From positions 1-27,584 of the IMG/VR virus record IMGVR_UViG_640753024_000006: a stretch of 27,584 nt of DNA. One strand, written 5' to 3'. The translations under genes were made by a program, and so were the position numbers. The notes beneath the pieces are model-generated. The model was not told where the DNA came from and did not search any database. It worked only from the letters and a program-made list of their open reading frames with translations. The first letter of the stretch is position 1. The number at the start of each line of letters is the position of its first letter. Source of the DNA: a virus (taxonomy: Duplodnaviria > Heunggongvirae > Uroviricota > Caudoviricetes). Shown here piece after piece: positions 5,584-9,335 of this stretch.

Positions 5584-6222
5584 TTACCAGTCAATCCAGA
5601 GCGGACCGTGTTCAGCGTAAATATAACTGTACACATCCAGGTTATATTTGTGGTCTGTTAAGAACAGGCCGCAAATACATGCCGAAGCTTCCAGGGCAGC
5701 GGCTCTGTTACTGAATAACCATGTAGCAACATTCCAGCGTTTTTCTGCATCCCAGTCTTTCTCAAGGCCTGATACCATGAAGAAACCGTTAGTGTTGCCA
5801 TCAAATAATTCTGTTTCCAGATTTTTAAGCAATGCCTGATGGACTCTTGCCAGGTATTCCGCCGGAATTTCGCCACGAATTCTGATGAGATTGTCATAAA
5901 CAAACATGTTCCCCGCATATGGCGATTTTTCTTTCTTGTTTTTTAAACCAGCATCATGAGCAAACTGATCAATTTCTTCTTCCGTTGGTTTCGTATTGAT
6001 GTTTTGCGCTGTCGTTTCTGCAATTTTATTTGCCACACTATCTGAGTCGTGTTTATTTACAGACGCACAGAAATACAATCCGGTAAACGCATCGCGCACA
6101 TTACGAGCTATATTATCAGTGTCTTTTTTCGTTACCGATTCCAATGCAAGTTCGTTCAGACGATGACGAAGTGTGTGTGCTGCAATCTCCTGGATTGAAG
6201 TAGGTAAATCTTTAAATTCCAT
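5584..6222 (-). CDS. Hypothetical protein (212 aa), AT-rich, in the position lambda/Rac uses for sieB/kil-type genes
   Basis: GAGG RBS before ATG at 6222; longer in-frame start at 6234 overlaps the upstream stop as TGATG; no transmembrane segments or recognised motif. Confidence 0.6.
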   Translation of the reverse strand: MEFKDLPTSIQEIAAHTLRHRLNELALESVTKKDTDNIARNVRDAFTGLYFCASVNKHDSDSVANKIAETTAQNINTKPTEEEIDQFAHDAGLKNKKEKSPYAGNMFVYDNLIRIRGEIPAEYLARVHQALLKNLETELFDGNTNGFFMVSGLEKDWDAEKRWNVATWLFSNRAAALEASACICGLFLTDHKYNLDVYSYIYAEHGPLWIDW

Positions 6223-6386: not shown

Positions 6387-6616
6387 GTTGACCTCATTTC
6401 CCCTTAACGCCGGGGTGGCGGAACAAAAACCTGCTGCATAGTTATTAAAGTTGAACCCTGCCGTCATGTTCTTACGCCTCGGGCTGGCTACTTAACCCCT
6501 GACCACTGCCTGGTAACTCGAAGTATTGCCCTGCGTTCTGTGGGGCGGGGTGGGTTGGTATTTTTAGTTTAATAAACATTAAACTTAAGTCAAGTAAAAA
6601 CTAAACCTCGGGACAT

Positions 6617-6655
6617 AACAAACGCAACGCTTTTGATAAAGTCGTTGCGGTTGTT
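6617..6655 (-). terminator. Long hairpin (13-bp stem, one mismatch) downstream of the toxin gene; possible terminator
   Basis: aacaaacgcaacg / cgttgcggttgtt around a 13-nt loop; T-rich tract follows only after a short gap on the minus strand. Confidence 0.35.
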
Positions 6656-6677
6656 ATGTTTCTATTGGTAGTGAAAG

Positions 6678-6956
6678 TTAGGGAAACTGGCGTCTTGCGT
6701 GGATCACGTTTACTACTTCAACGCTTGATGTTGTTACGCGGTATAGAATTATATAGTTAGGGTGGGCTACAATCTCACGCAAGCCAGGTACTCTGTCGCT
6801 TGGTGGGTATAAATACGGATGTTCGGATAACGGCAGCACACAACCCCTTAATCGCTGCCATAAGCGTTCAGCCGCATCTATGTCGAAACGAGCAATATAA
6901 CTAGTTATATCATCTAGGTCGGTATCTGCGCTTTCAAGCCATAACACGGGTAACAT
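6678..6956 (-). CDS. Type II toxin, RelE/ParE superfamily
   Basis: About 92 aa; C-terminal IILYRV...VEVVNVIHARR is typical of ParE/RelE toxins; ATG at 6956 directly follows the antitoxin stop (6958-6960). Confidence 0.7.
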   Translation of the reverse strand: MLPVLWLESADTDLDDITSYIARFDIDAAERLWQRLRGCVLPLSEHPYLYPPSDRVPGLREIVAHPNYIILYRVTTSSVEVVNVIHARRQFP

Positions 6957-6957
6957 T

Positions 6958-7149
6958 TTACTGCTTGCTCCGTTCCTTGCGCATCTTAGCAAAGCGTTCT
7001 GCCATTCTGCGCTCAATTTCGTCATGGGGAATTGCTGGGCGCGGATCTGCAAGGCTCGCTGCTACTTTCGCACGCAGCCATTCGTTGTAACTGTTTTCTT
7101 GTTCAATGGTTTCAAATTCAGAAACCATTGGTGAAAGGGCTCTATTCAT
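6958..7149 (-). CDS. Putative type II antitoxin (family uncertain, ParD/stability-determinant-like)
   Basis: 63-aa acidic/basic ORF immediately upstream of and abutting the toxin; GGAGGA RBS before ATG 7149. Confidence 0.6.
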   Translation of the reverse strand: MNRALSPMVSEFETIEQENSYNEWLRAKVAASLADPRPAIPHDEIERRMAERFAKMRKERSKQ

Positions 7150-7169
7150 GTTTCCTCCGGTTTTATAAC

Positions 7170-7541
7170 TCAGGCGCGGCGGCATTTTTGCGCCGCAATC
7201 CATCTCGCTATGAGATCTTCCATTGATTCTTTTTTCTGCTTTAACTCGCTGATTATCTGGCGTTGCTCATCCTCAGGGAAGGCTGAAAAAATCTGCAATA
7301 ACTCCAGTTGATTAGACGTTAACCCTGCATGTGGTGGAGAAACCCCCGGTTGCTCTGAGTATTCCGCATCCAGATACCCTTCCGGCATCCCGTATGTTTG
7401 CTCTATTCTTCTGGCAGCCTTTTCTCCAAACGAGGCTCTCCCACTCATTAGTTGAGATAGGTAGCTCTTCTCTTTGGGTGGCAGAGTTTTATCTTTAAAC
7501 CACTCCTTGAGACGTAAACGGCGAATTTCTTTTTTTTGCAT
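7170..7541 (-). CDS. Prophage repressor, DicA/RacR-like (HTH_XRE N-terminus, DicA-like C-terminus)
   Basis: N-terminal HTH-like segment (SYLSQLMSGRASFGEKAARRIEQTYGM) and C-terminal LELLQIFSAFPEDEQ, similar to DicA as I recall it; divergent from a Cro-like gene. Start taken at ATG 7541; the longer track ORF would run into the operator region. Confidence 0.7.
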   Translation of the reverse strand: MQKKEIRRLRLKEWFKDKTLPPKEKSYLSQLMSGRASFGEKAARRIEQTYGMPEGYLDAEYSEQPGVSPPHAGLTSNQLELLQIFSAFPEDEQRQIISELKQKKESMEDLIARWIAAQKCRRA

Positions 7542-7639
7542 GCGGTAATTATCTTTAGTAATCACTAAACAAGCAAATACTTGACTTAATGGTTTATTAA
7601 ACACTAAACTCACAAAAAAAACACTAAACCGAGGAAGGT
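7542..7639. promoter_or_regulatory. Divergent immunity-region promoter/operator with three direct CACTAAAC repeats
   Basis: CACTAAAC at 7563-7570, 7602-7609 and 7622-7629; TTGACT -35-like hexamer at 7581-7586; lies between the divergent repressor and cro-like starts. Confidence 0.55.
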
Positions 7640-7942
7640 ATGACATTAAAAGAGTTTATTAAATCATTAAGGGTTGGTGATGCTAAGAAATTCGCGGCCA
7701 GACTTGGTGTATCGCCATCTTACTTATCGCAAATGGCGTCTGGACGAACAGCTATATCTCCAACCCGCGCCCTTATGATCGAATCTGCGACGGAAGGCCA
7801 AGTAAGTAGGGCGGAGCTACGACCCCATGATTGGGAGCTTATTTGGCCTGAGTATGCGAGCGGCATTCGTTTGGGGCAAACACATGTAGTTCATGCTGAA
7901 GGTGATTGTAGTGCATGCTTATCTGATGGAGTTGATTCATGA
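7640..7942 (+). CDS. Cro-like HTH regulator (YdaS-like)
   Basis: 100 aa; HTH-like AARLGVSPSYLSQMASGRTAISP; GAGGAAGG RBS; divergent from the repressor. Confidence 0.65.
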   Translation: MTLKEFIKSLRVGDAKKFAARLGVSPSYLSQMASGRTAISPTRALMIESATEGQVSRAELRPHDWELIWPEYASGIRLGQTHVVHAEGDCSACLSDGVDS

Positions 7943-8364
7943 AAATCAAGCATGAACACATCCGCATGGCGATGAATGCCTGGGCGCATCCGGACGGTGA
8001 AAAAGTTCCGGCAGCTGAAATAACCCGGGCTTATTTTGAGCTGGGTATGACGTTCCCGGAACTGTATGACGACAGCCATCCGGAAGCCCTGGCTCGCAAT
8101 ACTCAGAAAATTTTCCGCTGGGTGGAGAAAGATACTCCTGATGCGGTTAAAAAAATTCAGGCGTTGTTACCGGCTATCGAAAAAGCAATGCCACCTTTGC
8201 TGGTGGCCAGAATGCGCAGCCACAGTTCAGCTTATTTTCGGGAGCTGGTGGAGATGCGGGAACGACTGGTGAGAGACGCTGATGATTTTGTCGCAGTGGC
8301 GATCGCTGGTTTCAATCAGATGAATCGTGGTGGCCCGGCAGGAAATGCCTTGGTGATGCACTAA
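7939..8364 (+). CDS. YdaT-like protein (CII-position; Rac YdaT family is reported toxic when derepressed)
   Basis: 141 aa; ATGA overlap with the cro-like stop; position and size match Rac ydaT; family assignment from memory. Confidence 0.5.
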   Translation: MKIKHEHIRMAMNAWAHPDGEKVPAAEITRAYFELGMTFPELYDDSHPEALARNTQKIFRWVEKDTPDAVKKIQALLPAIEKAMPPLLVARMRSHSSAYFRELVEMRERLVRDADDFVAVAIAGFNQMNRGGPAGNALVMH

Positions 8365-8387
8365 AAGCACGGTGTTCGGAGTTTTTT

Positions 8388-9335
8388 ATGAGCAGCAAGC
8401 TTCATGGTCTTGTCTGGGAAGGGTGTGCCTTCACCGGCATGATCTTATCCAGGGTGGCAGTTATGGCTCGCCTTGCAGATTACAGCAATGACGAAGGTGT
8501 GTCATGGCCTGCAGTGGAGACCATTCGTCGTCAGATTGGGGCAAAGAGTGAATCAACGGTTAAAGCTGCGATAGCAGAACTGGAAAAGAACGGCTGGCTG
8601 ACGAAGGAGGAACGTAAGGTCGGTGGGCGTAATGAAAGCAATATCTACCGTCTTAATGTGGAAAAACTCGAAGCAGCAGCAGCGGCAGCGCGTGAGGCAT
8701 ATAAACCGAAAAGAAAAATTAGCCAGGCAAAAAATGACCCGTCAAATATTGACCCCTCAACGGTTGACCCGTCAAATTTTGATGGATCAACCGTTGATAA
8801 AAAACAGCCGGTTAGGGGGGCGATGGTTGGCCCTGATCCGTCAGTATTAAAACCTGATCCGTCAGATAAAAGATCTTTTCGTCCGGAAGCTTCGCAACCG
8901 GACATGCAGACGGCTGAACAGGATTTTTTAACCCGACACCCTGACGCGGTTGTGTTCAGTGCGAAAAAACGCCAGTGGGGTAGCCAGGAAGATTTAGCGT
9001 GTGCGCAGTGGATCTGGGGGCGAATCGTGAGTCTTTACGAGCAGGCCGCCAGCGATGATGGCGAGATTTCGCGACCGAAAGAACCCAACTGGACCGCATG
9101 GGCCAACGACGTGCGCACAATGCGGATGCTGGATGGCAGAACTCACAGACAAATTTGTGAAATGTTTGGTCGGGTGCAGCGGGATCCATTCTGGGTAAAA
9201 AATATCATGAGTCCGTCAAAGCTTCGCGAAAAATGGGATGAACTGGTTATCCGCCTGGGGCGTTCGTCTGTACAGCGTTGTGTGAATCATATTTCTGAGC
9301 CGGATACCGAAATTCCGCCGGGGTTCAGGGGGTAA
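8388..9335 (+). CDS. Replication initiation protein (lambda O-like role) with internal iterons
   Basis: 315 aa; N-terminal winged-helix-like region; central DPSNIDPSTVDPSNFDGSTVD peptide repeats encoded by DNA iterons; immediately upstream of a DnaC-like loader. Confidence 0.65.
   Translation: MSSKLHGLVWEGCAFTGMILSRVAVMARLADYSNDEGVSWPAVETIRRQIGAKSESTVKAAIAELEKNGWLTKEERKVGGRNESNIYRLNVEKLEAAAAAAREAYKPKRKISQAKNDPSNIDPSTVDPSNFDGSTVDKKQPVRGAMVGPDPSVLKPDPSDKRSFRPEASQPDMQTAEQDFLTRHPDAVVFSAKKRQWGSQEDLACAQWIWGRIVSLYEQAASDDGEISRPKEPNWTAWANDVRTMRMLDGRTHRQICEMFGRVQRDPFWVKNIMSPSKLREKWDELVIRLGRSSVQRCVNHISEPDTEIPPGFRG
8736..8865 (+). repeat. Putative origin iterons inside the initiator gene
   Basis: Four tandem 15-bp repeats (gacccgtcaaatatt, gacccctcaacggtt, gacccgtcaaatttt, gatggatcaaccgtt) at 8736-8795, plus two ctgatccgtcag repeats at 8833-8865. 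Confidence 0.65.

Follow-up and report, generated by a model that had tools for sequence, protein, structure and literature searches.

The window analysed here is the whole stretch of 27,584 bp of viral DNA, and all positions refer to it. The locus of interest is a 98-bp gap between two divergent genes (Table 1). Leftwards, the repressor gene paaR2 is followed by the antitoxin and toxin genes paaA2 and parE2; rightwards, the cro-like gene ydaS is followed by ydaT and by genes for an O-like replication protein and a DnaC-like protein. On the minus strand, paaR2 has its start codon ending at 7541; ydaS begins with the ATG at 7640. Both start positions bear out the divergent control region delimited in the original prediction (7542–7639). 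PaaR2 matched no Pfam family. Its putative recognition helix contains SYLSQLMSG, which is closely resembled by SYLSQMASG in YdaS. At the start of ydaT, TTGATTCATGAAAATCAA fits the published YdaT site TTGATT-N6-AATCAA (PMC9986795).

Judged from its sequence, the locus is the paaR2–paaA2–parE2/ydaS–ydaT immunity region of a lambdoid prophage of the CP-933P/Sp12 type. The features on which this assignment rests are the N-terminal domain of PaaR2, the divergent order ydaS then ydaT, the position of paaA2–parE2 downstream of paaR2, and the placement of two inverted repeats, IR1 and IR3. CP-933P/Sp12 of Escherichia coli O157:H7 has the same gene order (parE2–paaA2–paaR2/ydaS–ydaT–O-like), and its half-sites, promoter hexamers, OL/PL sites, YdaT box and PaaR2 DNA-binding domain are all identical to those of the window. 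Alignment of window positions 6400–8400 with the genome of O157:H7 strain TR01 revealed only two differences in PaaR2, the linker substitutions S62A and V67G. In the intergenic DNA there are substitutions at 7543 (C/T) and 7612 (A/G), and the tract at 7613–7620 is one A longer in the window; none of these changes falls in a repeat. The tract, situated between IR3 and IR4, thus has eight A's in the window versus seven in O157:H7, which makes the IR3–IR4 spacing 20 rather than 19 bp. At the expected places, the window matches the oligonucleotides that were used on strain EDL933 for electrophoretic mobility shift assays (FL1/FL2), for footprinting and for the cloning of PR, PRM and PL. The 97-bp EDL933-type sequence, rebuilt from the published primers and the window, matched O157:H7 genomes at 100% and occurs in 592 of 5426 complete E. 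coli genomes. The same module is found in the sequenced phage Evi (97.9% identity). In the closest E. coli genome match, it belongs to a prophage beside potABCD with integrase, excisionase and exonuclease genes; the surrounding prophage may therefore differ from CP-933P.

The O157:H7 allele has been studied in detail by Jurenas et al. (mBio, 2021; PMC8630535), who applied mobility shift assays and DNase I footprinting to the 97-bp paaR2–ydaS fragment of cryptic prophage CP-933P (Sp12) of EDL933. PaaR2 and YdaS each shift this fragment specifically, forming several complexes. PaaR2 protects approximately 78 bp and YdaS approximately 65 bp in two stretches, in both cases over PRM933P and PR933P. 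Four equally spaced 18-bp inverted repeats with the half-site GTTTAGTAA were described, with IR1 over PRM933P and IR3 over PR933P, and with IR2 and IR4 lacking conserved left halves. Three direct 'operators', OR1–3, overlap IR1, IR3 and IR4. The exact recognition sequences were left to be determined, and it was considered that direct and inverted repeats might both serve. The paaR2 mRNA is leaderless in EDL933, as established by 5' RACE and N-terminal sequencing (MQKKE), and PR activity and 5' RACE were also published for the O157 allele. Both proteins repress PRM and PR, up to 45-fold; at low PaaR2, PRM activity rises approximately 4-fold and PR activity falls 2.5-fold. A further promoter, PL933P, with similar operators, lies beyond parE2 and is repressed approximately 100-fold by PaaR2 or YdaS. 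PaaR2 was reported to be an octamer in solution. Bistability, finally, was shown on this allele, which is near-identical to that of the window (PMC8630535).

The region is therefore already known, together with its repeats and promoters and the binding of both regulators to it, from work on a virtually identical allele. This includes the mobility shift and footprinting experiments that the original prediction had put forward as a check. The footprints agree with its placing of the repeats in the operator region of a repressor/cro-like switch. Binding of PaaR2 and YdaS to the window fragment itself is transferred from the 97-bp EDL933 allele and would be expected from the sequence identity of the proteins and half-sites.

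Table 1. Genes, predicted promoters and candidate operator sites of the paaR2–ydaS locus, in window coordinates.
Feature	Position	Strand	Remarks
OL/PL, predicted	6566–6606	-	Dyads GTTTAAT-aaac-ATTAAAC (6567–6584) and GTcaAGT-aaaa-ACTAAAC (6589–6606); -35 TTGACT (6588–6593), -10 TAAACT (6566–6571)
parE2, toxin	6678–6956	-	Pfam ParE_toxin, E = 4.8e-16; identical to O157:H7
paaA2, antitoxin	6958–7149	-	Pfam PaaA2, E = 6.7e-20; 2 substitutions relative to O157:H7
paaR2, CI-type repressor	7170–7541	-	123 aa, begins MQKKE; residues 1–61 identical to PDB 7nkv/8c3k/8c3l, named 'Phage repressor protein CI'
PRM, predicted paaR2 promoter	7541–7576	-	-35 TTGCTT (plus-strand 7571–7576), 17-bp spacer, -10 GATAAT (7548–7553); read from sequence
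OR, paaR2–ydaS intergenic promoter/operator region	7542–7639		98 bp here, 97 bp in EDL933; bracketed exactly by EDL933 mobility shift primers FL1/FL2
IR1 dyad	7553–7570		cTTTAGT-aatc-ACTAAAc; holds CACTAAAC copy 1 as right half; 1/14 mismatches; fills PRM spacer
IR2, weak	7573–7590		Right half ACTTAAT only; coordinates inferred from published even spacing; spans two back-to-back -35 hexamers
PR, predicted ydaS–ydaT promoter	7581–7610	+	-35 TTGACT (7581–7586), 18-bp spacer, -10 TAAACT (7605–7610); consensus scan; predicted start near 7617
IR3 dyad	7592–7609		GTTTAtT-aaac-ACTAAAC; holds CACTAAAC copy 2 as right half; 1/14 mismatches; covers PR spacer and -10
IR4, right half-site only	7612–7629		ACTAAAC (7623–7629) within CACTAAAC copy 3; after A-tract; left half ACAAAAA does not match
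ydaS, Cro analogue	7640–7942	+	100 aa; Pfam YdaS_toxin and HTH_3; identical to O157:H7 YdaS
YdaT box (OM)	7932–7949		TTGATTCATGAAAATCAA; spans ydaT start codon; sole match in window
ydaT, CII analogue	7939–8364	+	Pfam YdaT_toxin; 21 substitutions relative to O157:H7 (~85% identical)

When both strands of the whole 27,584-bp window are searched, CACTAAAC is found three times, at 7563–7570, 7602–7609 and 7622–7629. All three copies lie on the plus strand and inside the gap between the repressor and the cro-like gene, against a chance expectation of 0.67 per whole window. As predicted, the copies share one strand and their centres (7566.5, 7605.5 and 7625.5) are 39 and 20 bp apart; the TTGACT hexamer noted beside them is also present. 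The A that was proposed to precede the repeat stands before copies 2 and 3 only, as copy 1 reads TCACTAAAC. No other 8-mer in the window has three non-overlapping direct copies within 98 bp, and when the window was simulated 300 times with a first-order Markov model, any such triple appeared 7 times, i.e. with a probability of approximately 0.02 allowing for looking everywhere. The CACTAAAC repeat is thus real and moderately unlikely by chance.

The stronger signal is an 18-bp dyad. A scan of the whole window with GTTTAGT-N4-ACTAAAC, scored over 14 positions, gave only four sites with two or fewer mismatches, namely 7553–7570 and 7592–7609 in OR, and 6567–6584 and 6589–6606 in OL, just beyond parE2. 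The simulated mean for such sites is 0.06, and four were reached in none of 300 simulations. Only the limit of two mismatches is meaningful; for TTTAGT-N4-ACTAAA at up to three, the number of matches is at chance level. A fifth site inside ydaS (7654–7671) was suggested by a 21-nt inverted repeat (7585–7605/7651–7671) and was dropped, as it has 5 of 14 mismatches, a score equalled or bettered at 48 other places in the window. The idea that this region carries direct repeats instead of palindromes does not hold for copies 1 and 2, which are the right halves of the IR1 and IR3 dyads (1/14 mismatches each); only copy 3 is a lone half-site. In both IR1 and IR3, the left half-site agrees with the reverse complement at 6 of 7 positions, and the OL dyad at 6567–6584 is a perfect 7+7 palindrome.

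The sites are centred at 7561.5 (IR1), 7600.5 (IR3) and 7620.5 (IR4), with the weak IR2 near 7581.5. This regular spacing of 19–20 bp implies that the apparently irregular 39/20 spacing of the repeats reflects one skipped weak site, IR2. The promoter hexamers were assigned by a consensus scan together with reading of the sequence. TTGACT is the best candidate for the -35 element of the rightward promoter PR. PRM falls below the threshold of the scan, as expected of a weak promoter. Transcription from it is predicted to begin with the A of the paaR2 ATG at 7541; GATAAT is followed by six nucleotides and the ATG, the same geometry as in EDL933, where the start itself has been mapped. IR4 lies a short way past the predicted PR start and immediately before the ydaS ribosome-binding site. 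At the left end of the module, the PL933P cloning primers match 6560–6581 and 6657–6677, and both OL dyads lie inside that published fragment. The pair TTGACT/TAAACT is common to PL and PR here, in agreement with the identical PL and PR hexamers reported (PMC8630535).

In its overall layout, the region resembles OR of phage lambda (CI/Cro, OR1–OR3, PRM/PR). Both have a divergent repressor/cro gene pair, pseudo-palindromic operators overlapping both promoters, and a second operator set at PL. On the O157:H7 allele as in lambda, the repressor mRNA is leaderless, and a low dose of the repressor stimulates its promoter, which a high dose shuts down. The differences are that lambda has three 17-bp sites, whereas here there are four 18-bp sites about 20 bp apart, two of them with only one good half; that PaaR2 is without an S24 autocleavage domain and is reported to be octameric; and that the place of rexAB in the operon is taken by the toxin–antitoxin pair.

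The Qin and Rac prophages had been named as precedents for a direct-repeat mode of recognition and proposed for comparison. Neither serves as one, since the published operators of RacR and the DicA operator Oc are inverted repeats (PMC9638921, PMC3441716), and inverted repeats are carried by both control regions. DicA resembles PaaR2 in being a short repressor without a RecA-cleavage site (PMC10448788), and its C-terminal region is 30% identical to that of PaaR2 (BLAST, E = 1e-7). The N-terminal domains, in contrast, have no sequence similarity detectable by BLAST, and DicA gives a strong Pfam HTH_3 match where PaaR2 matches no family. Oc is a 20-nt inverted repeat, TTGTTAGTCATAACTAACAA, typical of dimeric repressors (PMC3441716), and is present in the Qin dicA–dicC region; in vivo, DicA binds only Oc, not Om or Oa (PMC3441716). 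Its core, TTAGT-N4-ACTAA, is also the core of IR1, TTAGTaatcACTAA. The Rac prophage has the same racR/ydaS–ydaT layout, with three operators (O1–O3) in or near the intergenic region, which are inverted repeats of the form T/ATAGGC-n3-GCCTAT/A (PMC9638921); TAGGC-n3-GCCTA repeats are present in the Rac racR–ydaS region. The RacR motif has no match in 7542–7639 and a single weak one in the window, at 5826, fewer than chance predicts. BLASTP of PaaR2 against RacR gave no significant similarity (E = 0.056), and the YdaS and YdaT of Rac are only 26% and 31% identical to those of CP-933P (PMC8630535).

A scan with the PaaR2 protein of one genome per bacterial species yielded 27 homologous loci (44–76% identity) in Xenorhabdus, Photorhabdus, Yersinia, Erwinia, Raoultella, Enterobacter, Morganella, Massilia, Mycoavidus and other genera. 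In 24 of them, both dyads and the block GTCAAGTATTTGCTT are kept upstream of the repressor gene. Read in the sense of the repressor, the shared order in these 24 anchored loci is GTTTATTAAACACTAAAC or a close variant, 4–6 nt, GTCAAGTATTTGCTT, and GTTTAGTGATTACTAAT or a close variant. The dyad centres lie approximately 20 and 58–59 nt upstream of the repressor start, as compared with 20.5 and 59.5 nt in the window. GTCAAGTATTTGCTT consists of two back-to-back -35 hexamers, and the two -35 elements inside it are the simplest explanation for the near-invariance of this block at IR2. Conservation spans the whole 18-bp dyads, including spacer-proximal bases outside the promoter hexamers. The proteins are conserved in parallel: the helix-turn-helix segment KEKSYLSQL is invariant in all 26 translatable homologues, and the divergent YdaS-like proteins keep SYLSQMASG or near variants. 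The promoter geometry also recurs. TTGCTT is 29 nt from the ATG in 14 of the 24 anchored loci and within one nucleotide of this in three more, and in 17 of 24 a -10-like CAAAAT or CACAAT is followed by about six nucleotides and the ATG; the remaining loci, those of Xenorhabdus and Photorhabdus among them, have longer repressor leaders. The long PaaR2 homologues (209–213 aa) carry a Peptidase_S24 domain, which indicates classical repressors of the CI/LexA type with the same N-terminal domain and dyads. PaaA2 and ParE2 were searched for in the 27 loci and neither was found; the association with a toxin–antitoxin pair is hence no general feature of this repressor family.

This picture of conservation does not extend to the orientation of the half-sites. 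In the sense of the repressor, IR3 of the window is GTTTAGTGTTTAATAAAC; six homologous loci carry precisely its reverse complement as their 18-mer, and in approximately 20 of 24 loci the perfect IR3 half-site is on the side opposite to that of the window. A typical homologue therefore combines a single GTTTAGTG with a single CACTAAAC in inverted arrangement. Three spaced direct copies of CACTAAAC occur in none of the 24 anchored loci (one locus scores three, which overlap in a single run), and a half-site at the place equivalent to IR4 is absent from all 24. The expectation that the repeats would be kept as direct units in homologous control regions is accordingly contradicted: what these loci keep is two dyads, mostly with inverted 8-mers and without the third copy. 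That IR3 can be flipped without loss of its place or its partner protein means that it behaves as a symmetric site, and its occurrence in both orientations among relatives is what such a site would tolerate. Two-fold symmetry over the divergent promoters, kept in relatives, holds for IR1 and IR3, not for IR4. From the sequences compared, the same-orientation layout of the repeats is specific to the E. coli lineage.

One reading of this layout is that the same-orientation half-sites arose within the E. coli CP-933P lineage and have a function there, with IR3 flipped relative to most relatives and an extra IR4 half-site past the PR start. The layout could then be an adaptation to the C-terminal domain of PaaR2, which is DicA-like and octamer-forming. 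This appears rather unlikely. If the layout is functional, the sites could be filled in a directional order, for example, or ydaS transcription could meet an added roadblock, and the logic of the switch would be unlike that of the S24-type relatives that share its DNA-binding domain and dyads.

Head-to-tail recognition, in which each CACTAAAC is bound by one domain, the PaaR2 oligomer aligns the domains and the palindromic partners are incidental, is less probable still. It would account directly for three perfect 8-mers in one orientation and for the 79% direct similarity over 24 nt between 7554–7577 and 7593–7616. It also agrees with the published designation of direct 'operators' OR1–3, the role of direct repeats having been left open (PMC8630535). 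As PaaR2 is reported to be an octamer and not a simple dimer, its DNA-binding domains need not sit as simple two-fold dimers. Against this stand the mutual inversion of the IR1 and IR3 8-mers in most of the 24 loci, the lack of three spaced direct copies in these loci, and the absence of the IR4 copy from all of them despite an invariant recognition helix. The 6/7 fit of the left halves of IR1 and IR3 to the reverse complement and the perfect palindrome in OL point the same way. The same N-terminal domain, moreover, is found in the homologues with an S24 peptidase domain, which is typical of dimeric CI/LexA repressors.

Very little credence can be given to the view that the repeats are mainly promoter parts, with TAAACT in copy 2 as the PR -10 and the other copies as incidental A/T-rich similarity: copy 2 does overlap the predicted PR -10 (7605–7610), TAAACT is also the PL -10 and part of the conservation among homologues coincides with promoter hexamers, but the other two fall where no promoter element is expected, copy 1 in the PRM spacer and copy 3 past the PR start, the conservation covers whole 18-bp dyads including non-hexamer bases, and DNase I protection by both proteins covers the repeat positions (PMC8630535). 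For the fragment as a whole, binding independent of RNA polymerase has largely been published.

The best explanation, with a probability of about 0.9, is that the region is the OR of the PaaR2/YdaS bistable switch, that its dyad operators are read by both regulators, and that IR1, IR3 and IR4 each have one of the three CACTAAAC copies as their strong half-site. What this analysis contributes as a basis is the identity of proteins and half-sites with the published allele, the dyad character of IR1 and IR3, and conservation across genera. PaaR2 would be the CI analogue, leaderless and co-transcribed with the PaaA2–ParE2 toxin–antitoxin pair; YdaS would be the Cro analogue and would use the same set of 18-bp dyads (consensus GTTTAGT-N4-ACTAAAC). 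The sites, about 20 bp apart, would place IR1 in the PRM spacer, the weak IR2 over the -35 hexamers, IR3 over the PR spacer and -10, and IR4 over the early PR transcript. Low PaaR2 would then repress PR and stimulate PRM, and high PaaR2 would shut both promoters, whereas YdaS would occupy the PRM side first; a matching OL/PL set lies beyond parE2. On each dyad, two PaaR2 N-terminal domains would probably bind as a two-fold symmetric pair. As IR4 has no left half, a strict model of one dimer per dyad needs cooperativity to explain the protection there, and its lone half-site may be filled cooperatively.

The discovery value of the locus is small, as the region was published in 2021 and the allele type is present in about a tenth of complete E. 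coli genomes. The addition made here is that conservation across genera concerns two 18-bp dyads, each of which keeps a fixed distance from a repressor gene that is mostly leaderless. Their conservation bears on the question of direct versus inverted recognition that the 2021 paper left open (PMC8630535). It also means that one DNA-binding domain and one set of operators are common to repressors with two kinds of C-terminal domain, an S24 peptidase or a DicA-like domain.

In six homologous loci from other genera (L016–L018, L020, L021 and L024), the 18-mer at the position of IR3, one of the two dyad operators between paaR2 and ydaS, is identical to the reverse complement of the window's IR3 sequence. 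It lies about 58 nt before the start of the repressor gene. Across about 20 homologous loci, the perfect IR3 half-site is found on the side opposite to that in the window. An in-place inversion of the operator seems to have occurred in the E. coli lineage.

The A-tract between IR3 and the lone half-site IR4 is polymorphic in length, with eight A's in the window and seven in O157:H7, which sets the IR3–IR4 centre spacing at 20 and 19 bp, respectively. Alleles that are 95–99% identical to the EDL933 type, the footprinted reference, occur in 81 of 592 E. coli genomes. The IR3 region also forms the left arm of a 21-nt inverted repeat (86% complementary) that extends into ydaS. An mRNA hairpin is unlikely because this arm precedes the predicted start of PR, the rightward ydaS–ydaT promoter; a candidate fifth operator in the right arm has 5/14 mismatches, which is background level, and was rejected.

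Coordinates of features in the window and in homologous loci
Feature	Position	Sequence	Remark
paaR2	7170–7541		minus strand
IR1 core	7554–7569	TTAGTaatcACTAA	
Inverted repeat, left arm	7585–7605		IR3 region
IR3	7592–7609		
A-tract	7613–7620		
Inverted repeat, right arm	7651–7671		ydaS codons 4–11
Rejected fifth operator	7654–7671		
YdaT box	7932–7949	TTGATTCATGAAAATCAA	perfect; across ydaS stop and ydaT start; matches published YdaT operator OM (PMC9986795)
DicA operator Oc	860–879 (L029, Qin prophage)	TTAGTcataACTAA	
Peptidase_S24-type repressor	2501–~3140 (L016, L018, L024)		

The core of IR1, the other dyad, and the DicA operator Oc agree in their half-sites and in the spacing between them. 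Despite this common core, the N-terminal domains of PaaR2 and DicA show no detectable sequence similarity. Cross-talk between the two prophages through these repressors is conceivable. YdaT shares only about 85% identity with its O157:H7 counterpart; YdaS is identical.

The PaaR2-type N-terminal DNA-binding domain, in which KEKSYLSQL is invariant, occurs with the same dyads but with two different C-terminal domains. Homologues of 209–213 amino acids carry a Peptidase_S24 domain, whereas the short C-terminal domain of PaaR2 is 30% identical to the DicA C-terminus; RecA-mediated autocleavage is therefore probably no route to PaaR2 induction. By analogy with DicA, PaaR2 may require an antirepressor.

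In the Xenorhabdus/Photorhabdus loci (L001, L002, L004–L008 and L013), 77–108 nt separate a PRM-like −35 hexamer (TTGCTT) from the repressor ATG, compared with 29 nt elsewhere; these homologues are probably not leaderless. In L012, repeats of about 20 nt, TGTTATGTGTACGGTAAATAG, form a tandem array upstream of the repressor gene.

Most of the 27 homologue loci from other species (L001–L027) contain a further dyad 0.46–2.3 kb downstream of the repressor gene, probably equivalent to OL, the operator set beyond parE2. Within the fetched flanks, PaaA2 and ParE2 are encoded in none of these loci, and a YdaT homologue in 11; the toxin–antitoxin pair therefore seems to have been inserted, in the E. 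coli lineage, into an immunity module that already existed.
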